Of a DNA stretch of 64,000 nt, positions 2,686 through 50,030 are shown piece after piece. The notes under the pieces were generated by a model, which saw only the letters and a list, made by a program, of their open reading frames with translations, was not told the origin of the DNA and searched no databases. The DNA lies in the IMG/VR virus record IMGVR_UViG_3300021399_000001, positions 69,905 to 133,904 of that record; one strand, 5' to 3'. This DNA is from a virus (taxonomy: Duplodnaviria; Heunggongvirae; Uroviricota; Caudoviricetes). Within the stretch, counting starts at the first letter, position 1. Each line of letters begins with the position of its first letter. The translations under genes and the position numbers were made by a program.

Positions 2686-5600
2686 AATATACGGGGCCTG
2701 TGGCATCATTCCATTGCCCTACTAATGCGGAAATTAGAAGTTTGAAGGTTCATTTTAGTCCGAAGCAGTTGGGCGAAGGTACACCCAGTCCGGAGAATGT
2801 GAGGGAGATTGAGGGATGGGATGAGATTACAGTACAACATCATGATGATATTTATGGCGTCCCATCCGAGTATCAAAGAGTTGAATATATTAGAATAAAA
2901 ACTAATTCATATTTTGATTCTGGTTATGTACCAACCATTGCGCCAAAAATTATTACAAAAATAGAAATAATGACAAGTACGGATGCCGATTTATTTGGCT
3001 TTGCTAACAATATTGCGCCATCTTTTATTGTAAATCCTACTAATTATGGCACTTTTTGGTATGAAAGATGGGGATCGACTAATTACACAATAATAATTAA
3101 ACAGATTTTTAAACCCACAATTTGTGAGTTTGGACAAAATCAAATAATTGATGACACATTGCTTAAAACTTTTCCAAATACAGAATGGTCTACAAATACT
3201 CAAACAATAAGAATAGGTGGAGCAAGAAATACCCATAGTGATATGAAGCTATATTATTGTGATATTTACGATGGAACAAATCTTGTGTGTAGATTTGTAC
3301 CTTGTCGTAGAAAAGTTGATGACACGCTTGGATTATATGATAGTGTAAATGATGTTTTTCTGACAAATCAAGGAAGTGGAGCGCTTGAATGCGGGCCGGA
3401 TGTGGGTGAAACGGTTGAGTATGAATTTGGTGTGTTGGGGAAGAATAAGTTTGATAAAAGTCAAAGTGTAGACGGAAGAATAATGAAATCTAATGGTTCT
3501 AACTATACAGCAGAAAGCGGTTATTATATATCACCGTTTATACCGGTAACTGTTGGTGTATCATATACCAAGAATAGCCCAACGGTTGATGCTTATCATA
3601 GATTTGCTACATATTCATCTGATAATGTTGATTCATTCGTTCGCGTGCTTGATACATCTAATACAATCACAATAGAATCTGGTGAAAACTATATTAGATT
3701 TTGTGGCAAGATTACAGAACTAGATACAGCGCAACTAGAACTAGGCTCCACCACAACATCCTATGAACCCTACGACCCAAATAAAACTGTGTATGGTGGA
3801 TGGATTGATTTAATTAGTGGGGAAGTGTGTGAGGAATATATAGCTAAGGATATGGGCCAAATAAATTGGAATAAATCATCCTCTGGTAATAAATTTTATA
3901 TTACTGGCTTGTCCCCTAATTACCCATGGCAGTCTGATTTAACAATGTATTGCTCGATTTATAAATTTGATGGGACAAATGTCGGTCATAATTGGTATGG
4001 AGATAACTATACAATAAGATACTTTTATCTTCCTAGCGGCAATGTCAGAGAAATTTATATACATGATGAACGATACGATAATGTGCAAGATTTTAAAACC
4101 GCTATGGAAGGAATAAATTTAGTATATAAATTAAATACTCCCAACACCTACCATCTCGCCCCCACCCAACTCCAAACCTTCCTAGGTCAAAACAATGTCT
4201 GGTCCAATGCCGATTATGTTGAAGTAGAATACGACCTATACGAAACCCAAGAAATCCTTAACCGCAAAGCCTTTATTATGGCAAATCAACCTCATTTGGT
4301 TGCGCCGGAAGCTTCACAGTTACAATCTTTTACTACCGATTTGGCGGCGCCGCTAAAGGAGTGTAAAGTTTATTTTAAACCAAAACAAGACTTTAATGGC
4401 TATGATAAACCTTGGCCTGCGGGTGGAGGGAAGAATTTGTTTAATTGGAATGTTGAAGAATCTGTATCTACAACAGGATCTGATGCCTCTACTGCGAGAA
4501 CTTTTATTTTAAATACTTATGTTATTGGAATGGCAGCAAATAATTATTATAGATCAAATTATGAAAACTGGGTATTAAATCCTTCAATTTCAAACGGCAC
4601 TATTAGCTTTAGTAGCGGTACTGCGGGTGGTTATGGTATTGCGTTTCCGTTAAAATTACCCGCAGAACAAATATATTATTTAAGTGGCACAGGTAATGGT
4701 TATGTAAGCGCAACATATTATGATGAAAATGGTAATATGATATCATATCAAAATAATAGATTAAATAATACAATTTCTATACCCGCTAATGCAATTATAA
4801 CATTAATTGGATTCTATGCTTCTACGCCAAATACTTCTTTTATATTTTCTAATATCCAACTCGAAGCAGGTTCAACCGCCACATCTTATGAACCCTATGA
4901 AAATATATGCCCTATTGAGGGATGGGAAGGGTGTGATGTTACTCGCGCAGGTTTAAATATATTTGATATGAATACGTTTGCGAAAAGTTCAGGAAATTAT
5001 TCGGTGCAGGTGACAAATGGTGTTGCTGTTGGAACAGCAACAAGTTTTAATCAATTATTTAGTAAAGATGGTAAATATTTAATTTTTAATAATTTTTTAG
5101 AAAACCGAGTATATATACGAGTTACTGCTTATAATGAAGGGAATAATAACAGTGAACATAAAAATGGGTTACTAGTATGGGTTAGTTACACAACTGGCAC
5201 TAGCGATCACTATTATTTTTATAATGATGATTTAACTGCTACTACTCTTGAATTTTCAACCTCCGCTAATAAAACGATAAATAAAATAGGAGTTTCTTAT
5301 GCTAATGGTGGTGCTAATATTTGGCACATCACTGAGTTTCAAATCACTCCAGTACCAAATATAACTGCCTATTATCCTTACAATGCCGCCACAATCCCAA
5401 TAACCTTCCCCACAGAAGCGGGGACAATTTATGGAGGATATGTGGATTTGGTGAGGGGAGAGGTAGTTGCAACTTCTCAAATGATTACTGTCGATGGTTC
5501 ACAAACTCTTTATGGCCCTTACACTTTTTATAATGGGTCAACTTGTACAAATAGATATATTATAATTACGAACTTGCAAGGTGGATATTCTAGTTCTTAT

Positions 5601-28221: not shown

Positions 28222-28276
28222 TGGGCTGGCCGTAAGGCCCTGGTCCACCTAACGGCGGGGCAATTCCCCGCAATAT

Positions 28277-28852: not shown

Positions 28853-28896
28853 CCAAGACCCATACAGCAATTTACAAGCTGGACTGAAAATCCCGA

Positions 28897-28966
28897 AAGA
28901 TTGTGGGTTCGACTCCCACTCCGCTCCACCATCTATGGGGCGGTGGCGCAGCGGCAGACGCACGTG
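28897..28966 (+). other. permuted tRNA-like halves: 3' half (T-arm + acceptor + ACCA) then a 5-nt linker then 5' half (GGGGCGG + D-arm)
   Basis: GTGGG-TTCGACT-CCCAC then CCGCTCC-A-CCA at 28903-28931. tctat linker. GGGGCGG-TG-GCGC AGCGGCAGA CGC at 28937 onward. The two acceptor strands are complementary to each other (6 Watson-Crick pairs plus 1 G-U). Confidence 0.4.
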
Positions 28967-28988
28967 AAAGAAAATGGGTCTAGATTAT

Positions 28989-29803: not shown

Positions 29804-29810
29804 CCATTTT

Positions 29811-29921
29811 GGGGAGGTATCCAAGTAGTCAAAGGAGCCAGCCGGTGAGTCTGGTGCTTATACCGGTATGCTAGCTATGACCAATAAGCTTCGCAGGTGC
29901 AAATCCTGTCCCTCCCCACCA
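29811..29921 (+). ncRNA. atypical ~108-nt tRNA-like gene (GGGGAGG...CCTCCCC-A-CCA) with TGCAAAT T-loop
   Basis: Terminal strands form an acceptor-like stem, and CCA is encoded. T-arm GCAGG-TGCAAAT-CCTGT. The interior is ~30 nt longer than any class II tRNA. No canonical 7-nt anticodon loop found (U33 is missing). Confidence 0.4.
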
Positions 29922-29926
29922 TTTAT

Positions 29927-30010
29927 GCGTCAGTATGCCTAGTAGCGAGGGCCCCGCGCTGTAAACGCGGCACGTCAGAAACACCGGTGGTGCAAATCCA
30001 TCCTGGCGCA
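29927..30010 (+). tRNA. tRNA-Tyr (anticodon GTA), class II, T-loop TGCAAAT
   Basis: Acceptor GCGTCAG/CTGGCGC, anticodon stem CCGCG/CGCGG with loop CTGTAAA, 15-nt variable arm, CCA encoded. Confidence 0.65.
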
Positions 30011-30085
30011 CCACAGCTAGACACGCACAGCAATCTTTTCTACTATTAGCGCCATTCATGCTGAAATTAGAATGTGTCTAGATTT

Positions 30086-30156
30086 AGGAGACTGGTGTAA
30101 CGGTAGCATATCCGGCTCCAACCCGGCTGGTTAGGGTTCAAATCCTTAGTCTCCTG
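30086..30156 (+). tRNA. tRNA-Trp (anticodon CCA)
   Basis: Acceptor AGGAGAC/GTCTCCT, anticodon loop CTCCAAC, T-arm TAGGG-TTCAAAT-CCTTA, CCA encoded. Confidence 0.6.
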
Positions 30157-30160
30157 CCAT

Positions 30161-30231
30161 GCCGCATTAGTTCAACGGCAGAACAGTACTTTCGTAAAGT
30201 ACATATATTTGTTCAATTCAAATATGCGGCT
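30161..30231 (+). tRNA. tRNA-Thr (anticodon CGT)
   Basis: Acceptor GCCGCAT/ATGCGGC (perfect), anticodon stem GTACT/AGTAC with loop TTCGTAA, T-arm ATTTG-TTCAATT-CAAAT. No encoded CCA. Confidence 0.6.
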
Positions 30232-30236
30232 TATAA

Positions 30237-30311
30237 CGTTCTGTAACTCAGTTGGTATAGAGTGCCATCCTGATAAGATGGAAGTCGCTGGTTCAAATCC
30301 AGCCAGAACGA
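30237..30311 (+). tRNA. tRNA-Ile (anticodon GAT)
   Basis: Acceptor CGTTCTG/CAGAACG, anticodon stem CCATC/GATGG with loop CTGATAA, T-arm GCTGG-TTCAAAT-CCAGC, CCA encoded. Confidence 0.65.
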
Positions 30312-30314
30312 CCA

Positions 30315-30735
30315 ATAAGGTTCATCCTAGAATACCTCCTTGTCGCGAAAGGGAAAAGGGTCTGCTTCAGCTAATAATATGAGAACAGCAGAGCTTGTAT
30401 TATGTATTTGCAGTATGTAAATGCCGGGAGTTCTCTTGCCCCGTAAGGTAGTCCGGAATACGCACAAGATTCGCTCGGTAACTGGATATATCGTAACTAG
30501 TAACTATCCAGGAAGTAGCTGTCCTTTGATTTTTGATAGCCGAAACTGCACGCGCGTGAAGTCGTGTGAGGTGCCCGATGGGCGTGCCAACCAATAGTAA
30601 CAAGAGGCACAATGGAGTATACACAACGCGAGTGTTAACTCCCATTCATTTATACGTCACTCGTGGCAAGTAAGATGATAGAACTGATGGATTGAGGCCC
30701 AAAGGTATTGATTCCTAACTTGCTGCGAGATTTAT
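30315..30735 (+). ncRNA. GC-enriched structured noncoding block (unclassified candidate ncRNA)
   Basis: ~420 nt with no RBS-supported ORF. GC well above the local average. Many local hairpins, for example GCCGGGAG...TCCGG. Confidence 0.3.
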
Positions 30736-30809
30736 CGGGAACTAGCTCAGTAGGTCAGAGCGGCGGCCTTATAAGCCGTGTGTCCTGGGTTCGAGTCCCA
30801 GGTTCCCGA
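30736..30809 (+). tRNA. tRNA with anticodon TAT (Ile-AUA-reading type?)
   Basis: Acceptor CGGGAAC/GTTCCCG, D-arm GCTC-AGTAGGTCA-GAGC, anticodon stem GCGGC/GCCGT with loop CTTATAA, T-arm CTGGG-TTCGAGT-CCCAG, CCA encoded. Confidence 0.55.
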
Positions 30810-30826
30810 CCAATATGGGGTCGTAG

Positions 30827-30891
30827 TGTAAAGAACACGCTCGGAAAGCAAGGGCCGAGAAAACAAAGGGCAGTACCGAGAGGCTCCACCA
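30827..30891 (+). other. degenerate tRNA-like element ending in CCA
   Basis: Has a D-arm GTGT-AAAGA-ACAC and a CTCGG...CCGAG stem but no canonical T-loop. Ends GGCTCC-A-CCA just upstream of the RBS of the 30908 gene. Confidence 0.25.
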
Positions 30892-30907
30892 ATATAAGGA
30901 AGATATA

Positions 30908-31066
30908 ATGAATAAGTATAAATTTGGTCGTATTACTTTTGGCACTATCCTTACAGTAGTGATGTTTAGTATTGGTTTTGACATCAGAACTTGGCAGTTT
31001 TGGGTGATTTATGGTTGTGCGTGGATGATGTCTTTTATGACTTTTTTGGAGGATTTTAACGGATGA
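30908..31066 (+). CDS. small hydrophobic membrane protein (52 aa)
   Basis: Not in the ORF track. ATG after AAGGAAG. Translation MNKYKFGRITFGTILTVVMFSIGFDIRTWQFWVIYGCAWMMSFMTF... Confidence 0.45.
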   Translation: MNKYKFGRITFGTILTVVMFSIGFDIRTWQFWVIYGCAWMMSFMTFLEDFNG

Positions 31067-31209
31067 TGAAATTCTTTTACGCTTTTATAGCAGCCTTTAA
31101 TTTATTTTGCTTTTATACTTTTCAAGATAATGCTATATGGGTACGTGGTCTTAGTCTTTCATGTTGTCTTTTAATGTGCCTATGTACAATAATTGAAGTG
31201 AATAGATAA
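31063..31209 (+). CDS. small hydrophobic membrane protein (48 aa)
   Basis: ATGA overlap with the previous ORF. Translation MMKFFYAFIAAFNLFCFYTF...CCLLMCLCTIIEVNR. Confidence 0.4.
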   Translation: MMKFFYAFIAAFNLFCFYTFQDNAIWVRGLSLSCCLLMCLCTIIEVNR

Positions 31210-31307
31210 TGCGTCCTTACCGAATCAGCAAACGGCGTGGTCTGCAAAACCATTGATAAGCGGGGCAGCACCGCTAGGACGCTCCAAAAAAAAGAAGAAG
31301 GAGTTTT

Positions 31308-31514
31308 ATGGCAATAAAAATTATTAAACATGGTCAACTGATATTAAGAGCGACTTGTCCTCGTTGTGATTGTATTTTTGAATTTATGCCATCTGATATG
31401 GATATTAAAGGGCCTTTATATGCGCCAATTGAATTTATAAATTGTCCAGAATGTGGCAATGAAATCACTTGGTGGTATGAAGATAAATCAGGACGCAAAT
31501 ATGAGTATATGTAA
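31308..31514 (+). CDS. small zinc-ribbon protein (CxxC...CxxC)
   Basis: RBS GAAGGAG. IKIIKHGQ..TCPRCDC...CPECGNEI is paralogous to the 43028 ORF. Confidence 0.55.
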   Translation: MAIKIIKHGQLILRATCPRCDCIFEFMPSDMDIKGPLYAPIEFINCPECGNEITWWYEDKSGRKYEYM

Positions 31515-31525
31515 AGGAGAAAAGT

Positions 31526-32500
31526 ATGTTTGATCTAATTTTAGCTGTTGTTGTTATTATTGCAGGTTTTGGCGTGGCAAGTGTAGTGTTCCCAGACGTA
31601 ACGAAGCGTAATGGTGACACGAAAAGTAGGAGTTCGATTCGCACAGTTATTCGTGCTGCTGCTTTCGTTATTGCCGTAGGGTTGATTATTCTTTCTTGTA
31701 TTTCTTATGTGCCAACTGGTTATACTGGTATTGTGACAACTTTTGGTAAGGTACATGAACACACACTTGATGCAGGCATTAATTTTCATGCGCCTTGGGA
31801 TAATGTAATTACTATGGATAATCGTGAACAACGTGCATCTTTCCAGTTGGAAGCATTTTCAAAGGATATTCAGCAAGTAGATATTCAAGGTTCTATCAAC
31901 TATAATATTGATAAGCTAACCGCTATGAATCTATACAAGGACGTAGGCACCGGATATGTCAATATTCTAATTGGTCCTCGTATTCAGGAAGATGTAAAGA
32001 TTGTTATTGCTCGTTATACCGCTGAAAATCTAATTGCTAGTCGTCAAGAGGCAGCTAATGCTATTGAGACTCTTATTCGTGATGAATTAACTTCAAAGGG
32101 TATTAATGTAATTTCTCTTGCGGTGGAAAATATTGATTTTACTGATGCTTTTGAATCTGCTGTTGAGGCAAAGCAGGTTGCTACGCAAGAAAAGCAGCGT
32201 GCTCAGACCCAGCAAGAGCAGGCAACTATGGAAGCAGAACAAGCCGCAAAGCGTAAGAGAATTGAAGCAGAAGCCGCGGCAGAGGTAGCAAAGGTGCAAG
32301 CAGACGCAGACGCATATTCTACACAGGTGAAGGCTGCCGCAGAAGCAGAAGCTAATGAAAAGATTAATAAGTCTCTAACTGAAGAACTTGTAAATTATCG
32401 TCAAATTCAGCGTTGGAATGGAGAACTTCCTCAATTTGTTGGCGGCGGCTCCACTATTCCAATCCTTAATATGGGCGAAACTACCGAAACTACGGATTAA
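31526..32500 (+). CDS. SPFH / band-7 (HflC/prohibitin-like) membrane protein
   Basis: RBS AAAGGAGAAAAG. N-terminal TM helix followed by YVPTGYTGIVTTFGKV and a typical SPFH core. Long AEAEA coiled-coil tail. Confidence 0.7.
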   Translation: MFDLILAVVVIIAGFGVASVVFPDVTKRNGDTKSRSSIRTVIRAAAFVIAVGLIILSCISYVPTGYTGIVTTFGKVHEHTLDAGINFHAPWDNVITMDNREQRASFQLEAFSKDIQQVDIQGSINYNIDKLTAMNLYKDVGTGYVNILIGPRIQEDVKIVIARYTAENLIASRQEAANAIETLIRDELTSKGINVISLAVENIDFTDAFESAVEAKQVATQEKQRAQTQQEQATMEAEQAAKRKRIEAEAAAEVAKVQADADAYSTQVKAAAEAEANEKINKSLTEELVNYRQIQRWNGELPQFVGGGSTIPILNMGETTETTD

Positions 32501-32513
32501 TATAAATACTTAT

Positions 32514-32541
32514 AACGCACGGGAAACCGTGCGTTTTTTCT
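32514..32541 (+). terminator. rho-independent terminator
   Basis: AACGCACGG-gaaa-CCGTGCGTT stem followed by TTTTTCT. Overlaps the -35 of the next promoter. Confidence 0.7.
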
Positions 32542-32542
32542 A

Positions 32543-32571
32543 TTTGACTTTGAATAGAAATTATAGTATAA
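32543..32571 (+). promoter_or_regulatory. consensus promoter copy 3
   Basis: TTGACT, 17-nt spacer, TATAAT. Conserved leader TTATTTTAGAAAGAGAAAAGGAG. Confidence 0.65.
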
Positions 32572-32604
32572 TTATTTTAGAAAGAGAAAAGGAGAGCAAA
32601 ATAT

Positions 32605-32787
32605 ATGTCTATTGTTTACACTTTGATTAGCCCTTTGAAGAACTCTGTTGAAACTCGCGTAAAAATTACTAATTTTGAGGAACGAGAACATGGTATTTAT
32701 TTCATTTGGGAAGGTAGCCAATGTTTTGTAAACTGGAATGTATTGGGCACCTATACTCTTGTGGAGGAAGATAAACATGACACTTGA
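32605..32787 (+). CDS. hypothetical protein
   Basis: RBS AAGGAGAGC; 60 aa. Confidence 0.5.
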   Translation: MSIVYTLISPLKNSVETRVKITNFEEREHGIYFIWEGSQCFVNWNVLGTYTLVEEDKHDT

Positions 32788-33238
32788 CGAATGTAGAGTG
32801 GAAACTCAAAAGCACATAGAAAAAGTGCGTAAGTATATCCGCTTTTTTACCGATAGATTAACTACTCGTGGTGTAGAACATGATGCCGCAAAACTTGAAT
32901 CTCCAGAGGTTGAATTATTTGCTGAGCATACTGAACAACTTGCCACATTAGAATATGGATCACAAGAATATAAGCAAGCATTAGAAGCTCTAAAGCCAGC
33001 TTTAGAGCATCATTATGCTACTTATCGTCATCATCCAGAACATTTTCCTAATGGTATTAATGATATGAATTTGATTGATTTAGTGGAATTAATGGCTGAC
33101 TGGAAAGCTTCTAGTGAGCGTCATAATAATGGAAATCTTTTAAAAAGCATAGAAATTAATGCCAAACGATTTGGTATTAGTAATCAATTAACACAGATAT
33201 TGCTTAATACAGCAAAGATTATGGAAGAACATGAATAA
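32777..33238 (+). CDS. hypothetical protein (His-rich HHY..YRHHPEHF)
   Basis: ATG-32777 after GGAGGAAG (ORF track 32738). Confidence 0.5.
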   Translation: MTLDECRVETQKHIEKVRKYIRFFTDRLTTRGVEHDAAKLESPEVELFAEHTEQLATLEYGSQEYKQALEALKPALEHHYATYRHHPEHFPNGINDMNLIDLVELMADWKASSERHNNGNLLKSIEINAKRFGISNQLTQILLNTAKIMEEHE

Positions 33239-33372
33239 TAAACAACAATTAACTCATGATTTTATAAAATTCGTAATGGAAAATTATGGAATACGATTAA
33301 CTATGACTGAATCAGATGAAGAAACATTTGAAACTTTTTTCCCTGATTTAGTTGAAATATTGGAGAAAGAAA

Positions 33373-33483
33373 ATGATACAAATTAATTTATTTGGATTTT
33401 TATTAATTGGCGCGACAGGATATATATTTGGATGGTTCGCGCGAAAAGTATACGAAAGGAGAAATATAAATGATAACACATAA
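33373..33483 (+). CDS. small membrane peptide (36 aa)
   Basis: Not in the ORF track. GGAGAAAG RBS. Translation MIQINLFGFLLIGATGYIFGWFARKVYERRN... Confidence 0.35.
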   Translation: MIQINLFGFLLIGATGYIFGWFARKVYERRNINDNT

Positions 33484-34018
33484 TGATGGTACTATTAAAA
33501 TTGAAATGCCCGATTTACATATACCAGAATCAGAAGTGGATAATGTTGTTCGCAATTTTCTTCATTCACGTGATGTAAAGGCGATTGAAACTAAGATTGA
33601 AGATTTAAAGCAAACGCTTTTATCATTGGAAAATAATAATAATCGTCTTCAAAAGCGTTTCAATGAAATTTATGAAGAAAAATGGAAAGACAATGAACTA
33701 ATGGAAATGAAGCTAAAGATGGAGCGCGCAATTCGTGAGAGAAGCTATGGCTTCCCGCTAACCGAAGAAGAACGGAATCGTTCCTATGACTGGCAGCGCA
33801 AGCACGATTCAGAAGTTCATTCTAATCCAGAAGGCTATCATGGTGCTTCTGGCGGCGGTTTCTCATACACTTTTTATCCTACTGGACTAGGCACTACTTG
33901 TAATTGTTTTTGTAATCAATGTAAGGCAAAGGCCATTCGTGAAGCGGGCGAAAAATGGTATGATAGATGCAAGGAGCTTGGTGGCGTTTGTGAAGTTGTT
34001 GGATGGGAGGCTTTCTAA
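33470..34018 (+). CDS. hypothetical protein (coiled coil + Cys-rich C-terminus)
   Basis: RBS AAAGGAGAAATATAA; 182 aa. Confidence 0.5.
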   Translation: MITHNDGTIKIEMPDLHIPESEVDNVVRNFLHSRDVKAIETKIEDLKQTLLSLENNNNRLQKRFNEIYEEKWKDNELMEMKLKMERAIRERSYGFPLTEEERNRSYDWQRKHDSEVHSNPEGYHGASGGGFSYTFYPTGLGTTCNCFCNQCKAKAIREAGEKWYDRCKELGGVCEVVGWEAF

Positions 34019-34021
34019 CTT

Positions 34022-34411
34022 ATGATACACTCTTATGAAACATTAAAGAAAAATACTGTAGTCGGTTATAAATTAAATGATGATAAGTATTATAAGCGCG
34101 GCAGAGCATTGGCTGCAACTTTAACTGATAAAGGTATAAATGTAAGCGTTGAAGATATAGATACACATTATATGTATACTGTACCATATAATGAACTAAT
34201 ATTTCTAAAACCATTAAATGATTTAGACCGTGAATGTATCATGCCCATCGAAGAGTTTATAGAATTAGTTGAAACTGGATTCATAACTGATTATGATGGT
34301 AGTGGTAATTATAGCGATGGAGAATATCGTTATGGTTATGTAGATTTTTATCCTAGTTTTCTTAAAAATGCAGCTAAAAAATATAAGTATGTGTGTTGGT
34401 ATAACAAATGA
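34022..34411 (+). CDS. hypothetical protein
   Basis: 129-aa ORF in an operon-like run of genes. Confidence 0.45.
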   Translation: MIHSYETLKKNTVVGYKLNDDKYYKRGRALAATLTDKGINVSVEDIDTHYMYTVPYNELIFLKPLNDLDRECIMPIEEFIELVETGFITDYDGSGNYSDGEYRYGYVDFYPSFLKNAAKKYKYVCWYNK

Positions 34412-34602
34412 AATTTATTTATGATGATAATTTGTATGATGCAATGAAAGACGTATATGATTATGCTTATCGTGTTTTCTTTGGAAAGGCTCCAATAGAT
34501 GTTATATATCGTATGAATTATGGCAACAAGGGAGCAGAGCAAAAAGTTTTACAGTATATTTGGGACACCTATATTGAACCGAAAGGAGAAAATAATGAGT
34601 AA
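34408..34602 (+). CDS. hypothetical protein
   Basis: 64-aa ORF; ATGA overlap with the upstream gene. Confidence 0.4.
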   Translation: MKFIYDDNLYDAMKDVYDYAYRVFFGKAPIDVIYRMNYGNKGAEQKVLQYIWDTYIEPKGENNE

Positions 34603-35185
34603 TATTTACTTTACAAGCGACACTCATTTTTCACATAATCGCGGCTTTCTTTATGAGCCACGCGGTTTTTCATCTATTGAAGAACATGATGAGACTATTA
34701 TAGAAAATTGGAATAAAGTAGTAAAACCAGAAGATATTGTTTTTCTTCTTGGTGATACTATGTTAAATAATAATGATAAAGGAATTGAATGTCTTAATAA
34801 GTTAAACGGCTCTATTTGGTTTATTCGCGGCAACCATGATTCAGGAGAGCGCATTTATCGTATTTATCATGAGTGTCCACATATTCATTTTTTAGAGGGC
34901 GGTTCTGAAAATTTTGCTACAATTGCTACAATTAAGAAATTTAATGGCTATAATGTATACTTATCACATTATCCAACTTACACCAGTTATATTGAAAATA
35001 TGGCGCCATTAAAGAAACATATGCTGAATTTTCATGGACATACACATTCAAAAAATAAGTTTTATCAAGATATTCCATTCATGTATAATGTAGCACTTGA
35101 CGCGCATAATAACGCGCCAGTATCTTTTGATGAAATTATTTCAGATATTGAAGCAAAAGCAAACGAATGTATTGCTATGCTATAA
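34595..35185 (+). CDS. calcineurin-like metallophosphoesterase
   Basis: ATG-34595 after AAAGGAGAAAATAATG (ORF track 34520). Motifs SDTHFSH, LGDTM, RGNHD and HGHTH. Confidence 0.65.
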   Translation: MSNIYFTSDTHFSHNRGFLYEPRGFSSIEEHDETIIENWNKVVKPEDIVFLLGDTMLNNNDKGIECLNKLNGSIWFIRGNHDSGERIYRIYHECPHIHFLEGGSENFATIATIKKFNGYNVYLSHYPTYTSYIENMAPLKKHMLNFHGHTHSKNKFYQDIPFMYNVALDAHNNAPVSFDEIISDIEAKANECIAML

Positions 35186-35285
35186 AGAAATATATTTATG
35201 CTAGCAGCTATCTTTTTATTAACATTATTATTAATTTGGCTATGGTGCATAATACAAGATATAAATAATATATGAGAGGGGAAAC

Positions 35286-35495
35286 ATGGGACTACTCAAA
35301 CGAGGGCTTCGCGCAAAAACTAATCTAATAGATGATTATTTAGTAGATTTTACAACAGAAGAATTAAATGATATTTTAAAACAAGCGCCTCTCTTAATTA
35401 AAAATAAAGAAGAAAAATCAGAGATTATAAATTTAACTACCTCGCGCGAATTAAATCATTTAAAAAGACGAATGTGGAAATTCTATCATAAATAA
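35286..35495 (+). CDS. hypothetical protein
   Basis: RBS GAGAGGGGAAAC; 69 aa. Confidence 0.45.
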   Translation: MGLLKRGLRAKTNLIDDYLVDFTTEELNDILKQAPLLIKNKEEKSEIINLTTSRELNHLKRRMWKFYHK

Positions 35496-35524
35496 TTGAC
35501 TCTCTACTAAAATTATGATATAAT
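35496..35524 (+). promoter_or_regulatory. consensus promoter copy 4
   Basis: TTGACT, 17-nt spacer, TGATATAAT. Confidence 0.65.
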
Positions 35525-35659
35525 TATTATAATGAAAGGAGAGAAGATGAATGTGTTGGTTAGTGTTGATTGGTTTATTCAGCTTGATTCTCATTTTCTG
35601 TAAAATCTATGATAAAATTGAAGATTATATCTGGCAAAAAAGATGGAGGAATTCATAAC

Positions 35660-36070
35660 ATGAAATCATCAAAGAATTGGTTTATTTATGCTTATCCCGA
35701 AATGTACGGCGGACTTCATGGTATGTATGCCTATGAAGTAGCGAGCGGTATATCTTACGACGAAGCGTGCGATTGGGGCCATGAGCTTGCCTATGAAACT
35801 GTAGAATCTTATTTGCGCGCAGATGAAATTTATTCTACTGATGATTTTATGGACGAATTTTATGACGGCGCAGAATGGGATGACCGCTATGAGGATGAAT
35901 ATTGGGACGCCTATGAAGAAGTCATGCAGGAGCAATGCGCTTTTGAAGTTTGGCCTTTTAAGGATGGAGTAACTATTGCTGACTATGAAAAGTGGCAAAA
36001 GGAAAATATGGAGCCTCATGATTTCATTGAGCGCTATTGCCGCCAACTCACAGAGGAAGATTATGTGTAA
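35660..36070 (+). CDS. hypothetical acidic protein
   Basis: ATG-35660 after GGAGGAATTCATAAC (ORF track 35609). A 36-codon hydrophobic upstream ORF at 35550-35657 may also be translated. Confidence 0.5.
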   Translation: MKSSKNWFIYAYPEMYGGLHGMYAYEVASGISYDEACDWGHELAYETVESYLRADEIYSTDDFMDEFYDGAEWDDRYEDEYWDAYEEVMQEQCAFEVWPFKDGVTIADYEKWQKENMEPHDFIERYCRQLTEEDYV

Positions 36071-36269
36071 TTTAGAGTCTCAACTCAAACAAGCAACAGA
36101 TTGTATTGATTTACTTTTAAAAAGAATAGACGATTTAAATGATGATCTTTCTGAATCACAACAATTAAATCGTTATTATGAAGATAGAATAATGGAACTA
36201 GAACAAGAAAAATCTGCTCTTTATTTACAATTAGAAGAATGGGAAAATTCCTACTACAAACTTATTTGA
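36063..36269 (+). CDS. coiled-coil protein (68 aa)
   Basis: ATG-36063 after GAGGAAGATT (ORF track 35976). Confidence 0.45.
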   Translation: MCNLESQLKQATDCIDLLLKRIDDLNDDLSESQQLNRYYEDRIMELEQEKSALYLQLEEWENSYYKLI

Positions 36270-36294
36270 CTTTTTTCGTAAATTCTGTTATAAT
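36266..36294 (+). promoter_or_regulatory. consensus promoter copy 5 (upstream of the Ro60-like gene)
   Basis: TTGACT, 17-nt spacer, TGTTATAAT. Confidence 0.65.
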
Positions 36295-36358
36295 ATTATT
36301 GTAAGAAAGAAACGAGCCCTAGTCCAGGGCTGACCAAATGAAAAGGAGAAAATAAATT

Positions 36359-44881: not shown

Positions 44882-44965
44882 GGCCCCGTGGCGTAACAGG
44901 TAGGCGCAGCAGACTTAAAATCTGCTATCCGTAAGGGTGTACCGGTTCAAATCCGGTCGGGGCTA
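44882..44965 (+). tRNA. tRNA-Leu (anticodon TAA), class II
   Basis: Acceptor GGCCCCG/CGGGGCT, anticodon stem GCAGA/TCTGC with loop CTTAAAA, 15-nt variable arm, T-arm ACCGG-TTCAAAT-CCGGT, CCA encoded. Confidence 0.7.
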
Positions 44966-44971
44966 CCATAT

Positions 44972-45056
44972 GGCCTAGTGGCGCAACTGGTGAGACGCGG
45001 CAGACTCAAAATCTGTTACGGTAGAAACGCTGTGGGTTCAAATCCCACCTGGGCTA
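44972..45056 (+). tRNA. tRNA-Leu (anticodon CAA), class II
   Basis: Acceptor GGCCTAG/CTGGGCT, anticodon loop CTCAAAA, long variable arm, T-arm GTGGG-TTCAAAT-CCCAC, CCA encoded. Confidence 0.65.
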
Positions 45057-45060
45057 CCAT

Positions 45061-45089
45061 TTGACTTTCTTCTAAAATTATAGTATACT
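45061..45089 (+). promoter_or_regulatory. consensus promoter copy 13
   Basis: TTGACTTTCTTCTAAAATTATAGTATACT. Confidence 0.6.
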
Positions 45090-45119
45090 AATTATAGTAA
45101 AGTGAAAGGAATTAATAAA

Positions 45120-45383
45120 ATGGAAAGAGAATTTGCCATTCTTCATAATCATTTTATAGATGAAAAAACTCGTGGTTTAGCTGCGATAGCATTATTTCAG
45201 AAAGGCAAAATTCGTATTTATGCTGATAGTATTGATATTCCAAATATTATTAAGTTATATTATTTAGCAGAACATTTGGCACATGTCAGTATAGAAAAAT
45301 TTGTTGGACGAATTTTAAAATCTATTGATAATAAAAAATTTTATTGTAAACATAGATGGTATATAAAAGAAAATAATATTTGA
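45120..45383 (+). CDS. hypothetical protein
   Basis: ATG-45120 after GTGAAAGGAATTAATAAA (ORF track 45102). Confidence 0.45.
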   Translation: MEREFAILHNHFIDEKTRGLAAIALFQKGKIRIYADSIDIPNIIKLYYLAEHLAHVSIEKFVGRILKSIDNKKFYCKHRWYIKENNI

Positions 45384-45408
45384 CTTTCTTCTAAAATCGT
45401 AGTATAAT
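45380..45408 (+). promoter_or_regulatory. consensus promoter copy 14
   Basis: TTGACTTTCTTCTAAAATCGTAGTATAAT. Confidence 0.6.
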
Positions 45409-45443
45409 AATTACAGTAAAGGGAAAGAGAAAGGATACATTCA

Positions 45444-45590
45444 ATGATTAAATGTGAAACTTTTGAGCACGATTACCAAGTAGTAAATTTTTGTAATGAG
45501 AATCACATTACTAAAGAAAATATAATTTCATTGCATTTTAATCCTGAATTGTTATTTAGTTATAGATTATTCTATGAGGTAAATGATTGA
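45444..45590 (+). CDS. hypothetical small protein (48 aa)
   Basis: RBS GAGAAAGGATACATTCA; not in the ORF track. Confidence 0.35.
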   Translation: MIKCETFEHDYQVVNFCNENHITKENIISLHFNPELLFSYRLFYEVND

Positions 45591-45615
45591 CTTTTAGCAG
45601 AAAATCTGCTATAAT
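45587..45615 (+). promoter_or_regulatory. consensus promoter copy 15 (drives the tRNA / ncRNA block)
   Basis: TTGACT, 17-nt spacer, TGCTATAAT. Confidence 0.6.
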
Positions 45616-45695
45616 AAATATGTAAGGCGGCCACAGCAAATATTATTCAAGCAGTAATCTTTTAAATTATGTAGCTAAAAATCCGCCTAGAATTT

Positions 45696-45769
45696 GGGGT
45701 TGTAATCGAATTGGCATAGGTACTGCGCTTAGAACGCAGGTTTTGAGAGTTCGACTCTCTCCTTCCCCA
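45696..45769 (+). tRNA. class-I tRNA with anticodon TAG and tandem U-U mismatches in the acceptor stem
   Basis: Exact 74-nt standard geometry. Acceptor GGGGTTG/CTTCCCC, anticodon stem CTGCG/CGCAG with loop CTTAGAA, short variable arm GTTTT, T-arm GAGAG-TTCGACT-CTCTC, CCA encoded. Confidence 0.5.
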
Positions 45770-46385
45770 CCAAGACACATTCAGCAACTCAAAGTTTATC
45801 TTTGAATCGTCAGTTCAAATCTGACCTCGCGCATCGCGCAAGTAGCATAGTGGATAATGCAAAAGACAGAAAATGTGTCTAGTACGAGACTTGCAATCAC
45901 CACCCGCCTTCGGTGATAAAACAGGGGTTAACACTCGTTTGTGAGTAACGCTCGGAAAACGCCTGTATAAAAAAGAAAGAAGCGAGGACAGCCAGCCCAA
46001 CAGCTGTGGGTATGGTGGTAACTCTCACATCCTAGGAGTCCTGACGCTGTTATTGGACTTAATACTCAACGGAGTTGGTACCCAAACAAATCCTAGGATG
46101 TTATGGTATCAAGTGAAGAGCCTTCTCGTGGCGATACTGATTTCGACGAATCTTCACAATGAAGAACGGCTAGAATCGCGTTCCCTATAATTCCTCGTAG
46201 AAATTATAGTCTTAGTCACTAGCAATAAATATTAAAGAGCGCATTTCCCGTCCTGATCAGCGAGTAGAAATGCCAAAGAGCTCCCAGTGATATTGGGCGG
46301 GTGCGAGCACCCGTATAAGGGAACCCGGGGTGTACGAGAAAGCGTGGATAAGAGTGGACCGGCCACGATGAAATAGCTCACTTTA
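45770..46385 (+). ncRNA. GC-enriched structured noncoding block (unclassified)
   Basis: ~615 nt with no ORF. Contains a T-arm-like hairpin GTCAG-TTCAAAT-CTGAC, many long-range stems (for example GGGTA...TACCC and GTGAAGA...TCTTCAC), and an S-element-like AAATTATAGTCTTAG. Confidence 0.3.
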
Positions 46386-46389
46386 ATAT

Positions 46390-46418
46390 TTGACTTTTTC
46401 TTCAAATCATGCTATAAT
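46390..46418 (+). promoter_or_regulatory. consensus promoter copy 16 (drives the structured RNA and HNH gene)
   Basis: TTGACT, 17-nt spacer, TGCTATAAT; leader TATTATAGTAAAGAGGAAAGG. Confidence 0.6.
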
Positions 46419-46439
46419 TATTATAGTAAAGAGGAAAGG

Positions 46440-47140
46440 AAGTAGATACTCTATTTAATAAAATGGTTGAACCAAGTGAAGAAGAGCTAACCACTCTGCT
46501 TGGGCTATCTGAATAACAGCCATACGATTTAGCGGGATACTACTAAATCGCGGCCGCAAAATCAGTAATGATTAGCGATAAAGAGAAACTCTGAATGTTA
46601 AGGGTAGGCGCTTGGTTATCCGCTAACAAAAGCACGATTCCTCACGGCATCATAATAGAAGTCAAGCGTTAAAAGCGTAGACTGAATCCTAGTTAGGGTT
46701 TAGCTGGTGACTTGTATCAAACCTAGGAAAGACCAACAAGATGCTATTGTCGTTGAAACCTAGAAATAGGCTATAAGTGAGGTTTACGGTAAAAGTAGCT
46801 TAAAGTGACAACAAGTTCTTGGTATTAGAACAAATAATACATATTTGATTTATTATTAAAGAATTTGCTGAATGGTTTAAGTGAAATTTGGGAGTAGACA
46901 ATCTCCCCGTTGCTAGTCGAAAGACAGGGTGAAGAAGTTAAAGGGTCGCTACCTTTGGCTCAGCCTTCATCTTCAACGTGGCTGAATATGTTTAGAAGGA
47001 TAATACAAGTACGGCGAAGGTCGCAACGGTTTTATTAAATAGGGTATTTGCCCTAAACTTTAAGGTAGCATTGGAGTAATTAACCAATGAGACAAAGATG
47101 CTCCTACATCGGCTTAAAGTTTAAAATATAATCATAGGAG
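46440..47140 (+). ncRNA. structured noncoding block upstream of the second HNH endonuclease (candidate ribozyme or ncRNA)
   Basis: ~700 nt with no ORF. Follows promoter copy 16. Contains ACTACTAAATCGCGG (similar to the group I intron R element GACTAAAT) and a downstream TAGTCG. Confidence 0.3.
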
Positions 47141-47148
47141 TGATTTAT

Positions 47149-47559
47149 ATGAAAGCAGGAGATAAAAGAATTTGCCAAATTTGTGGCACAGAATTTGAAA
47201 TTATTGATAAAGGATGGAGTAGAAAATACTGTTATAAATGCTCTCCAAAAATTGATAAATCTGGAAAAACTTTGACATACGCGGAAAATATTACGATAAA
47301 ACGTCGTGCTATTAAAGAAATGTTAATTGCTTATAAAGGTGGAAAATGTGAACGATGTGGCTATGATAAGTGTAATAGAGCCTTAGAATTTCATCATATT
47401 AACCCACAAGAAAAAGATTTTGGTATTTCTAACAATATCAATCGTAATATTGAAGAATTAAAATCAGAAGTTGATAAATGTATTCTTTTATGTTCCAATT
47501 GCCATGCCGAAGTTCATCAAGAACTTTATGATAAAGGTCTTTTAAAAGAAGAATTTTAG
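47149..47559 (+). CDS. HNH endonuclease with N-terminal zinc finger
   Basis: ATG-47149 after TAGGAGTGATTTAT. CQICGTEF...CYKCSP is a zinc ribbon. EFHHINP...LLCSNCHAEVH is the HNH motif. Confidence 0.7.
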   Translation: MKAGDKRICQICGTEFEIIDKGWSRKYCYKCSPKIDKSGKTLTYAENITIKRRAIKEMLIAYKGGKCERCGYDKCNRALEFHHINPQEKDFGISNNINRNIEELKSEVDKCILLCSNCHAEVHQELYDKGLLKEEF

Positions 47560-47678
47560 GCGGATTCGCTCAGTGGTTGAGCAGTCGGCTGGTTGGATAG
47601 AAATAGTCCTCGTTGAGTGCAAGACTCAAATCCAGCACCATTAACCGACCTAGGGGAGTTCAATTCTCTCATCCGCCG
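47559..47678 (+). tRNA. tRNA (anticodon GGT? Thr-like) with a 49-nt insertion in the anticodon loop
   Basis: Acceptor GGCGGAT/ATCCGCC (perfect), D-arm GCTC-AGTGGTT-GAGC, T-arm GGGAG-TTCAATT-CTCTC, CCA encoded. Anticodon-stem strands GTCGG (47584-47588) and CCGAC (47645-47649) are separated by 56 nt. Confidence 0.45.
47590..47643 (+). other. minihelix-like element nested in the anticodon loop of the preceding tRNA
   Basis: GCTGGTT then an 18-nt spacer then TTGAG-TGCAAGA-CTCAA then ATCCAGC-A-CCA. The T-loop variant TGCAAGA resembles the TGCAAAT loops seen elsewhere. Confidence 0.35.
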
Positions 47679-47961
47679 CCATAGTCACGTAGAGGACTTA
47701 TTCTCTATGCTTGCTCAATGTCCAACTTATGTGAACGCGCGAAGTCACATAAGAGAGTCAACCCTTCCGAAGTACGAAGGAACCCCTAAAATGGTCTGTG
47801 GGGATAAACGGCATCATGAACCGTCTAATGTAGTTGACAAAGAGTATAGGTTCGTTAGGCTCCTAAGAAAAGCCTATCACCATCACGATAGCAAATAAGT
47901 GAATAAACGGATACGCGGTTAGCTGACCTTAAAGCTATTCTAATCTAGAGGAGAATAAAAT

Positions 47962-48501
47962 ATGAATGACGTAAGACTAAAGATTCTACCGCCTTGGACT
48001 ATTACAATTCGTAAGTTTGAGGCATTATTCGACGGTGATCCGCAGATTGCTTGTAATTGTAATTTCGCAGGTTCTAATCCTTCCATCGTATTAGCCTGTA
48101 ATAACGGCGACAAGGTCGCTGCCCTACAGCAGATTCTTCCTTCAGAAGTTTCTTTTGGTAATATTAAGCTAGCTGTAAGTGTAGATGGTACTCCTTCTAA
48201 TCGTGCTTTTACCAGCAAGGTTGAACTATTTGATACAGCTTTTAAAGGCAATCCTGTTTACGCTTATTCTGTATGTCCAGCTGAAGAAGGTTATCAATGG
48301 ATTGGAACTACTTATGTAGTATTTAATAACTGCGTAGTACAATTCGCTGCTGATAATCTAAATGATTGTCATGGCGTTATTAGTACTCTATATGAAACCA
48401 TTGCTAATGAGCTTCTAACTGGTCCTGCTACTGAAGGTGTATTTTATAATACAAATGTAGAGCGTGCAGGACTTGGTAAACCTCTAGGTGAGTGGCCATA
48501 A
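47962..48501 (+). CDS. hypothetical protein
   Basis: RBS AGAGGAGAATAAAAT; 179 aa. Confidence 0.5.
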   Translation: MNDVRLKILPPWTITIRKFEALFDGDPQIACNCNFAGSNPSIVLACNNGDKVAALQQILPSEVSFGNIKLAVSVDGTPSNRAFTSKVELFDTAFKGNPVYAYSVCPAEEGYQWIGTTYVVFNNCVVQFAADNLNDCHGVISTLYETIANELLTGPATEGVFYNTNVERAGLGKPLGEWP

Positions 48502-48514
48502 GCCACTCCATTGT

Positions 48515-48587
48515 GGGCCTATAGTTCAGCGGCTAGAATGTCCGGTTGTCTCCCGGAAGATCGCAGGTTCAAATCCTGTTAGGCTCG
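48515..48587 (+). tRNA. tRNA-Asp (anticodon GTC)
   Basis: Acceptor GGGCCTA/TAGGCTC, anticodon stem TCCGG/CCGGA with loop TTGTCTC (unusual U37), T-arm GCAGG-TTCAAAT-CCTGT, CCA encoded. Confidence 0.55.
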
Positions 48588-48679
48588 CCAGTTTGGTGCT
48601 TATAGTTTCGACCATTTAAAACTCGAAACTAATTTTAGACTCAATCAGCAATTATTTACTTGCATGTGGGGCCGGAAGT

Positions 48680-48735
48680 ATTGGTTTGACTCCAGTTCTC
48701 TCCGCCATATGGGGAGATAGTGTAACGATAGCACG
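48680..48735 (+). other. permuted tRNA-like halves: T-arm + TCTCTCC-G-CCA, then tat linker, then GGGGAGA + D-arm
   Basis: ATTGG-TTTGACT-CCAGT then TCTCTCC G CCA at 48680-48707. GGGGAGA-TA-GTGT AACGATA GCAC at 48711-48735. The acceptor strands are mutually complementary. Confidence 0.4.
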
Positions 48736-48759
48736 CCGTATAGTATGAGTCTAGTATAG

Positions 48760-49174: not shown

Positions 49175-49210
49175 AGTTTTAAGCCGTTACAGCAATCTTT
49201 TTTATAAGTG

Positions 49211-49275
49211 GTTAATTTATTTTGATTGAGAAGCAAAATGATAGATGGTTCAAGTCCATCACGATTAAAATTAAC
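49211..49275 (+). other. three-arm tRNA-like element (closing stem + hairpin + T-arm), no CCA
   Basis: GTTAATTT...AAATTAAC closing stem enclosing ATTTTG-attgagaag-CAAAAT and GATGG-TTCAAGT-CCATC. Confidence 0.3.
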
Positions 49276-49385
49276 GGCTTAGTATTATTATAAGAGACAA
49301 GGCACATGCAGCAATTACTTTTATAATTACAAAATATAGATATTGGACAGTATATTAAAGTAAATTATTAGTGCCTTGAATTTAT

Positions 49386-49905: not shown

Positions 49906-49924
49906 TTAATAGGCACACACAGCA

Positions 49925-50004
49925 ACTTACATAGATAATCTATGAGTCATCGGTTCGAGCCCGATTATGCAAGCCAAAATTTTGCGTATCGCCCAGTCGG
50001 TAGG
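49925..50004 (+). other. minihelix-like element ending TATGCAA-G-CCA, then aaatt linker, then tRNA 5' half (TTGCGTA + D-arm GCCC-AGTCGGTA-GGGC)
   Basis: TTACATA then CATAGATaATCTATG hairpin then ATCGG-TTCGAGC-CCGAT then TATGCAA G CCA at 49925-49974. TTGCGTA-TC-GCCC... at 49980 onward. Both 5' 7-mers pair with TATGCAA. Confidence 0.4.
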
Positions 50005-50030
50005 GCAATAGAAAATAATGTGCCTAGATG

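Follow-up and report, generated by a model that had tools for sequence, protein, structure and literature searches.

To our knowledge, ROOL and GOLLD are the only large RNAs known from the transfer RNA (tRNA) islands of phages. Both are typical of such islands and were reported in 2025 to form RNA-only cages (PMC12286853). YrlA RNAs are found near Ro60 in phages, and in M. smegmatis the YrlA undergoes RNase P cleavage and receives a CCA tail (PMC4201824). We analyzed a stretch of 64,000 nucleotides (nt) from a Caudoviricetes virus (positions 69,905 to 133,904 of IMG/VR record IMGVR_UViG_3300021399_000001; hereafter the window), in which nine blocks free of open reading frames (ORFs) lie among tRNA genes. 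Comparison with related sequences suggests that this region is probably an RNA island of a large uncultured phage, in which folded noncoding RNA (ncRNA) modules would be co-transcribed with tRNAs. Besides ROOL and drum, the island holds Y-RNA-like tRNA mimics, two or more other large RNAs with strong covariation, and genes for a Ro60-like protein and an RNA ligase, and this genomic context ties mystery RNAs to tRNA supply and RNA repair.

The tRNA island extends over 28277-51011 of the + strand, with 29 tRNAs called by ARAGORN and further tRNA matches added by Rfam. The nine blocks, whose intervals agree with those of an initial annotation, are the + strand stretches left between tRNAs, promoters and short ORFs, and the only ORFs within them are short and unsupported. 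Their GC content is 38-50% (38-39% in blocks 3 and 8), where the window as a whole has 36.7%; they stand out less than had been claimed (42-50% in a 33% GC genome). Single-sequence folding energies of the blocks are ordinary (z-scores from -1.46 to +0.44), therefore the case for structure must rest on comparison with relatives. The RNA-ligase gene at 39689-40339, used as a query, retrieved 14 IMG/VR loci on contigs of up to 181 kb, and pattern scans added further related loci. Among GenBank phages there is no close relative, and HNH fragments alone match. Across ~30 related metagenomic phage contigs the blocks are conserved as a mosaic, with pieces present or absent locus by locus. Each block is accordingly a string of separate modules: the blocks are composites of separately closed RNA modules rather than the nine units first described, and alignment to relatives yields ~20 such modules, some of them window-specific.

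Thirteen near-consensus promoters (TTGACT-N17-TATAAT) are spread through the region, many of them followed downstream by ATACAAGGTGAGGGAAA or a similar sequence.

32544, 35496, 36266, 37939, 39365, 40336, 42971, 43232, 44178, 45380, 45587, 46390 and 48888, + strand: near-identical strong promoters

The observation that consensus promoters lie directly upstream of several blocks holds for block 2 (40336) and block 8 (46390), and a further one precedes a tRNA-Leu and block 7 (45587). The repeated promoters are likely the recombination points behind the cassette mosaic. Terminator-like sites are no commoner in the region than in shuffled sequences.

Large structured RNAs among the tRNA genes

The largest modules and the two matches to established families are the following.

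30315-30735, + strand: block 1 (B1), ~420-nt structured RNA that exactly fills the gap between tRNA-Ile(GAU) and tRNA-Ile(UAU)
44660-44756, + strand: drum RNA (RF02958) inside block 6 (44536-44880), 50.3 bits against a gathering threshold of 43
45896-46158, + strand: block 7 core, ~260-nt structured RNA, 8 loci
46159-46226: window-only insert in block 7
46227-46390, + strand: module 7b, 164 nt, closed by a 10-bp stem, AAAUAUUAAAG / CUUUAAUAUU
46390-46418, + strand: ROOL's own promoter
46448-47042, + strand: ROOL RNA (RF03087), block 8, 331.1 bits against a gathering threshold of 99.1, model positions 1-574 of 574

B1 was present in all eight loci first compared, and 27 distinct sequences were found in the end. 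In 25 of 25 full-length homologues examined it fills a tRNA-to-tRNA gap exactly, with an upstream tRNA on one side and an AUA- or AUG-reading tRNA on the other. Eight sequences give 76 predicted pairs in 13 helices (93.9% paired), with 33 double-change pairs against 14.1 ± 2.5 in shuffles (0/500) and 4-12 in slid controls; with 25 sequences, RNAalifold reports compensatory changes in 41 of 70 pairs. Rfam holds nothing real for B1 at E ≤ 10, and a search of 185,579 reference genomes with the B1 pattern gave 14 matches, all of them chance by nhmmer. That B1 is a large structured RNA without a described family is well supported. We also considered B1 as a reduced RNase P RNA and rejected it: the AGUCCGG/CCGGA resemblance is not conserved, and the window reads CCCAAA there. 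With its 420 nt, 13 or more helices and 27 natural variants, B1 presents itself as a target for structure determination. The tRNA 3' of B1 (25 loci; 30736-30812 in the window) carries the loop CUUAUAA (Ile-UAU, 17 cases) or CUCAUAA (CAU, 9). Directly after tRNA-Ile(UAU), at 30817-30891, lies a 75-nt tRNA-like RNA (GGGGUCG...GGCUCC-ACCA, with a G3-U70-type acceptor), which is kept in L008, L077 and L083 and is called by neither ARAGORN nor Rfam.

Alignment to relatives divides block 7 into four parts: a YrlA-like module, the core, the window-only insert and module 7b. The core has 58 pairs (97.5% paired), of which 14 show double changes against 4.5 ± 1.4 in shuffles (0/500) and 0-2 in slid controls, and nothing real was found for it in Rfam at E ≤ 10 when block 7 was searched alone. 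Module 7b occurs in five loci as three sequence types, and its helices covary (GCAUUUC/GAAAUGC, GCUUUUC/GAAAAGC, GCCUAAC/GUUAGGC). Judged by their compensating substitutions, B1 and the block 7 core are under strong structural selection. The description of the blocks as highly structured is accordingly borne out by strong covariation in block 1 and parts of block 7; folding energies do not bear it out, and elsewhere covariation is weak. In B1 and the block 7 core we see new classes of large RNA, in a setting of the ROOL and GOLLD kind. Given their size and complexity, the role that we favor for both, though as less likely than not, is that they could form RNA-only assemblies in tRNA islands, as ROOL and GOLLD do.

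Block 8 is ROOL, found in a phage and near tRNAs, as is characteristic of the family, and at the same place in six related phage loci. Drum scores 52-71 bits in relatives, where it occupies the window's position and a second one. No terminator-like site was found near 44756-44880, 3' of drum; a tRNA-Leu lies there instead. The alternative first offered for the blocks, large phage ncRNAs of unknown type, was therefore largely right, apart from these two assignments and from the first part of block 7, which is a YrlA-like Y RNA next to a core without an Rfam match. A DUF3800-XI RNA lies at 28222-28269, at the 5' edge of the tRNA island (Rfam, 64.5 bits). The ORFs scanned include none for a DUF3800 protein, and a DUF3800 gene as partner of the drum and DUF3800-XI RNAs was accordingly dropped.

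YrlA-like RNAs, a Ro60-like protein and interrupted tRNAs

A family of tRNA mimics and three protein genes of the same island are listed together.

28854-28986, 45771-45885, 48635-48757 and 49909-50030, + strand: four YrlA-like tRNA-mimic copies
45771-45885, + strand: the copy that forms the first 115 nt of block 7, 110 bits with our own covariance model
34520-35185: metallophosphoesterase, same island
36359-37891, + strand: Ro60/TROVE-fold protein, Pfam DUF2828 and DUF7788
39689-40339, + strand: Rnl2-like RNA ligase, 216 amino acids (aa), nucleotidyltransferase domain only

The YrlA-like copies were traced from orphan T-arm hairpins in the island. From 5' to 3' they consist of a terminal stem, a CAGCAAY motif, a V hairpin, a T arm, an acceptor-like closed stem-loop, a D arm and AAAAUGnGUCUAG. 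All four window copies have the T arm, the acceptor-like stem-loop and the D arm in YrlA order within a stem formed by their ends, and three of the four carry N-CCA and a short spacer in the acceptor loop. With a model built from them, the window and six relatives yield 12 distinct full-length copies scoring at least 69 bits; these are 99.2% paired with double changes in 14 of 21 pairs, in an alignment that had been fitted to its model. We also considered whether these modules could be functional tRNA genes in circular permutation and rejected this reading, since only one copy allows an anticodon stem to be drawn, with a loop that is too long. Shorter modules of the form stem-CAGCAA...stem-UAG, with no tRNA-like core, occur on the + strand at 30020-30081, 45623-45693 and 49182-49282.

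The product of ORF 36359-37891 has no Pfam TROVE match (only DUF2828 and DUF7788) and no PDB sequence match. In its AlphaFold2 (AF2) model (predicted local distance difference test, pLDDT, 81.5), it is predicted to adopt a TROVE ring and a von Willebrand factor A (vWA) fold, and the top 12 Foldseek matches in PDB are all Ro60/TROVE, over the full length and with probability 1.00 (template modeling score, TM, 0.41-0.60), a phage Ro60 among them. The gene lies 7.4-12 kb from the YrlA-like copies, and by analogy its product is a likely partner of these RNAs. It is unusually GC-rich (~50%). Its family is very large (7834 matches at E ≤ 1e-10), and members are present in 704 GenBank phage records, which include Escherichia, Salmonella, Mycobacterium, Listeria and Bacillus phages; the best match among GenBank phages is below 40% identity. 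The RNA ligase is identified by Pfam RNA_ligase (3e-18), T4 Rnl2 in PDB (E 1.5e-3) and phrog_548. Together with the metallophosphoesterase it is a possible RNA heal-and-seal pair.

The window has a single gene each for tRNA-Glu(UUC) and tRNA-Asn(GUU), both with an insert in the anticodon loop, and similar inserts occur elsewhere in the clade.

42223-42342, + strand: tRNA-Glu(UUC), 44-nt insert at 42258-42301 after nt 35
47559-47681, + strand: tRNA-Asn(GUU), 49-nt insert at 47592-47640 after nt 34, ending in ACCA; ARAGORN intron mode
L001 14167 and 2699; L005 3074 and 14148; L006 5290 and 16476; L008 11974 and 14205; L009 12402; L002 7237; L023 2659 (-); L015 7155 (-); L017 2226 (-): interrupted tRNAs in relatives

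The tRNA-Glu insert consists of a 7-bp stem, a T-arm-like hairpin and ACCA, and the interrupted gene is recognized both by Rfam (tRNA, 44.8 bits over 117 nt) and by ARAGORN in intron mode. Syntenic relatives have plain tRNA-Glu(UUC) and plain tRNA-Asn genes. The clade contains 14 anticodon-loop inserts, in Glu, Asn, Leu(UAA), Ile(UAU) and Lys(UUU) tRNAs, which are 44-105 nt long and follow nt 34 or 35. Each begins with a 7-bp stem, fully paired in 12 of the 14 and at six of seven positions in the other two; 13 end in ACCA and one in ACAA. Removal of the insert restores a canonical 7-nt loop with the same anticodon as in the uninterrupted syntenic orthologues. The interiors range from a T-arm minihelix up to a full cloverleaf: L006 5325-5401, within tRNA-Ile(UAU) 5290-5441, is a complete nested cloverleaf, called tRNA(CUA) by ARAGORN and a possible amber suppressor. 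Insert stems covary (GUUGGAU/AUCCAGC vs GUCAGAU/AUCUGGC), with two compensatory changes in the L009 orthologue of the tRNA-Asn insert, and the outer acceptor stems also covary while interrupted (CGGGAAC/GUUCCCG vs CGAUCCC/GGGAUCG), an argument for selection on both parts.

An acceptor stem followed by ACCA is a classic minihelix substrate of RNase P. Since the inserts are acceptor-shaped and end in ACCA, we propose RNase P and a 3'-end nuclease as the cutting enzymes. RNase P would cut the 5' end of the insert and leave the 5' exon with a 3'-OH, the tRNA 3'-end nuclease would cut after CCA and leave the 3' exon with a 5'-phosphate, and the phage Rnl2-like ligase would reseal the anticodon loop. 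On this evidence the inserts may represent a new kind of enzyme-dependent tRNA intron, a proposal that we put forward as possible and short of probable. We found no report of tRNA inserts of this kind in the literature. Splicing of these inserts, if it occurs, would make them the first tRNA introns of bacteria or phages to be excised by the enzymes that process tRNA ends, with neither a ribozyme nor a splicing endonuclease taking part. An 84-nt class II tRNA (Tyr-like, GUA) at 29927-30010 was found by Rfam only. Just upstream of it, a 113-nt element (29810-29922) has an 8-bp acceptor stem, a T arm and ACCA; it may be another interrupted tRNA, whose insert departs from the 7-bp/ACCA rule.

Smaller modules and competing explanations

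The remaining blocks and the two HNH genes between the blocks are resolved as follows.

40336-40364, + strand: promoter of block 2, two tRNA-Met genes and block 3, 11/12 consensus match with TG extension
40370-40596, + strand: block 2, ~200-nt cassette enlarging the loop of a conserved leader hairpin upstream of tRNA-Met
40810-40896, + strand: block 3 module a, 84-98% identity in L001, L003 and L012
40897-40983, + strand: block 3 module b, ~75-nt hairpin followed by invariant UAUAAAUAGGAAAAACCAA, 9 loci
40977-41161, + strand: block 3 modules c and d, with their own closing stems (AAAUGAGUA/UACUCAUUU and CCACGCG/CGCGUGG) as read from the sequence
41319-41795, + strand: free-standing HNH gene between blocks 3 and 4, Pfam HNH_3, NUMOD4 and I-HmuI NUMOD-like
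41896-42030, + strand: block 4 module a, 75-94% identity in L012, L002, L005, L007 and L003
42032-42094, + strand: block 4 module b, almost invariant 63-nt three-helix hairpin, 10/10 loci
42199-42217, + strand: hairpin GCGGnCACCAGAGCnCCGC directly before tRNA-Glu, 10/10 loci, two covarying pairs
42422-42680, + strand: block 5, a module closed by CAGACUUCGCAAC / GUUGCGAAcgGUCUG (read from the sequence), then the 5' untranslated region (UTR) of ORF 42687
47149-47559, + strand: second free-standing HNH gene, Pfam HNH
47682-47945, + strand: block 9, ~265-nt hairpin-rich RNA, 4 loci, 89-96% identity

The ncRNA reading likely extends to blocks 2-5 and 9, as strings of smaller conserved hairpin modules. 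The promoter at 40336 and the 5' hairpin GGUGAGGG..CCCUCAC are kept in 11 loci; the block 2 cassette itself is found only in L001, L012 and L003 (97-98% identity), and other loci have none or unrelated cassettes. The closing stem of module 3b covaries (GGCGC/GCGCC vs AGCGC/GCGCU). Module 3c is present in L004 (99%) and L005 (82%), module 3d in L001, L002 and L012 (96-99%), and the last ~150 nt of block 3 (41162-41318) are AT-rich and window-specific. Block 4, compared in 10 loci, also holds optional modules; module 4b shows compensatory change in four pairs and is confined to one clade (16 IMG/VR contigs). Only 42582-42680 of block 5 is conserved in relatives, and the last ~70 nt of block 9 are the 5' UTR of ORF 47962.

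Several points weigh against reading the whole region as an island of folded ncRNAs. The RNAs of the island are known here from sequence alone, the ordinary folding-energy z-scores are uninformative as evidence of structure, and the covariation counts rest on related sequences. For blocks 2, 5 and 9 and the window-only segments 46159-46226 and 41162-41318, homologues are too few or too similar for covariation, and some of these may be spacer or decayed sequence. The YrlA-like family, with its model-fitted alignment, also stands apart from the described one: the best match to Rfam YrlA (RF02553), at 49931-50030, is full-length but weak (23.6 bits against a gathering threshold of 69; E 0.03), the copy at 45771-45885 has no Rfam YrlA match at E ≤ 10, and the modules lack the GNCGAAN0-1G motif, their 5' strands reading AAGACnCAnnCAGCAAY. 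With neither the threshold reached nor the motif present, we file them as working like YrlA and not as members of the family.

The rival explanation that survives best, which we nonetheless regard as unlikely, holds that the blocks are mostly non-functional spacer, made of decayed tRNA genes and recombination scars, with GC content and hairpins derived from tRNAs. Mosaic presence and absence across relatives, the window-only segments, the orphan T-arm hairpins of the island and the ordinary folding energies are all in its favor, and blocks 2 and 5 and the window-only inserts may yet be explained by it. It is at odds with the covariation analysis, a check proposed from the start, in which compensatory change preserves helices in B1, the block 7 core, 7b, the YrlA-like family, 3b and 4b. 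Nor does it fit module 4b, which stays almost invariant in 10 loci with differing flanks, or ROOL and drum, which are established families.

Slightly less likely again is a purely cis-acting role, in which the blocks would be leaders and trailers for tRNA processing or for translation of downstream ORFs and would not act in trans. Blocks 5 and 9 are best conserved at their 3' ends, which lead into ribosome-binding sites, block 2 enlarges a conserved leader hairpin, a conserved hairpin stands just before tRNA-Glu, and an AUA- or AUG-reading tRNA always follows B1. However, action in trans is established or presumed for ROOL, drum and YrlA-type RNAs, no known processing signal comes near the complexity of the block 7 core or of B1 with its 13 helices, and modules change position among relatives, as drum does between its two sites.

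The initial annotation had favored an arrangement of group I introns and homing endonucleases. Here the two HNH homing endonucleases would have spread group I or II introns through the tRNA cluster, and the blocks would be these introns or what is left of them, a reading that we consider very improbable. The two HNH genes are indeed embedded between blocks, the tRNA genes of this clade are insertion hot spots, and in two relatives a tRNA is split by a ~450-nt insert holding an ORF. Yet searches of Rfam over 30000-48600 at E ≤ 5 detected no group I or II intron, RNase P, transfer-messenger RNA (tmRNA) or GOLLD family, and block 1 or block 7 searched alone at E ≤ 10 matched no Intron_gpI, Intron_gpII, RNase P, GOLLD, 6S or Y_RNA. 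Relatives likewise gave no intron match. ARAGORN called no tmRNA, and neither a group I catalytic core, P3-P9 with P7, nor a group II Domain V/VI signature was matched in Rfam. The Rfam scan suggested at the outset thus returned ROOL and drum, and no intron, RNase P, tmRNA, 6S or Y_RNA in the unassigned blocks. No block interrupts an exon, each lying between complete tRNAs, promoters or ORFs. Strings taken earlier for R and S elements fall inside ROOL (46520 and 46908) and in the window-only insert (46212). The HNH gene at 41319-41795 is absent at that position in relatives, and the one at 47149-47559 has no syntenic conservation; relatives keep the flanking modules without HNH genes. Both genes are window-specific and behave as free-standing endonucleases. 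Split exons, which the annotation had sought, do exist in the interrupted tRNA genes beside blocks 4 and 9, but the inserts are not the blocks and, at 44-49 nt in the window, are too short for a group I core. The tRNA downstream of B1 that is split by the ~450-nt insert belongs to L080 (1044-1575) and L078 (reverse strand), where the insert is mostly a 136-aa ORF. We rejected these inserts as group I introns: there is no Rfam intron match, and the ORF leaves no room for a ribozyme core.

Just as improbable is hidden coding, by which the blocks would look ORF-free only under translation table 11, their products being small proteins or one of their stop codons being reassigned: a tRNA(CUA) in one relative and 72-codon open runs in blocks 2 and 9 speak for it, but stops interrupt every frame of every block, both under the standard code and when TAG, TGA or TAA singly is read as sense, the ORFs of blocks 2 and 9 begin or end within tRNAs, aligned homologues of B1 and the block 7 core show no 3-nt periodicity, their variability being flat over codon positions, and substitutions arrive as compensating pairs.

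Proposed expression and comparison with known systems

Under the RNA-island reading, the strong sigma-70-type promoters would drive long + strand transcripts in which tRNAs alternate with independently folding ncRNA modules. Most modules adjoin a tRNA on at least one side, with exact abutment to tRNA ends, and host enzymes that trim tRNA ends would therefore release them: RNase P at the 5' side and RNase Z or exonucleases at the 3' side would free the modules as discrete stable RNAs, in the manner of tRNA punctuation. We infer such release from the arrangement of the genes. Once released, ROOL would assemble into an RNA cage (PMC12286853), octameric as is characteristic of its family, and the YrlA-like RNAs would, by analogy, bind the island's Ro60-like protein. 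With the Rnl2-like ligase and the phosphoesterase, these RNAs could form a phage toolkit that supplies, guards or repairs tRNA and other RNA during infection.

Transfer RNA punctuation is known from mitochondrial transcripts and from the release of mascRNA from MALAT1. The island resembles these cases in that tRNAs or tRNA-like structures flank other RNAs in the transcript, and RNase P and RNase Z would set the ends; it differs in its bacteriophage setting and in being recognized from genome sequence only. T4 SegB is a free-standing homing endonuclease in a phage tRNA cluster. The HNH genes similarly lie between RNA genes and are absent in close relatives, but belong to a different nuclease family. 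With the protein-dependent tRNA splicing of archaea and eukaryotes, the interrupted tRNAs share short anticodon-loop inserts without a ribozyme core; in contrast, the inserts follow nt 34 or 35 and not 37/38, no bulge-helix-bulge is seen, and the insert has the form of a tRNA acceptor minihelix with ACCA at its end. As in the anticodon-loop repair by T4 Pnkp and Rnl1, the phage has genes for an RNA ligase and a phosphoesterase, here in the vicinity of the inserts.

The drum RNA at 44660-44756 exceeds the curated threshold of its family, and relatives score higher; it departs from the family in lying within a longer ORF-free block and in having tRNA-Leu downstream in place of the family's terminator (PMC5737381). 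The YrlA-like modules share with bacterial and phage YrlA the order of elements and a Ro60-fold protein in the same island, and the N-CCA in the acceptor loop of three copies resembles M. smegmatis YrlA (PMC4201824). They differ in scoring below the Rfam threshold, in having AGACnCA..CAGCAAY and AAAAUGnGUCUAG in place of GNCGAAN0-1G, and in their four copies per genome, dispersed among tRNAs and away from the Ro60 gene. B1 and the block 7 core match no ROOL, GOLLD or other Rfam model and are found in one clade of metagenomic phages only, with no occurrence in the 185,579 reference genomes. In other respects they are like ROOL and GOLLD: large and many-helixed, placed beside phage tRNAs, served by a strong promoter of their own or a shared one, and with no partner protein known (PMC5737381, PMC12286853).

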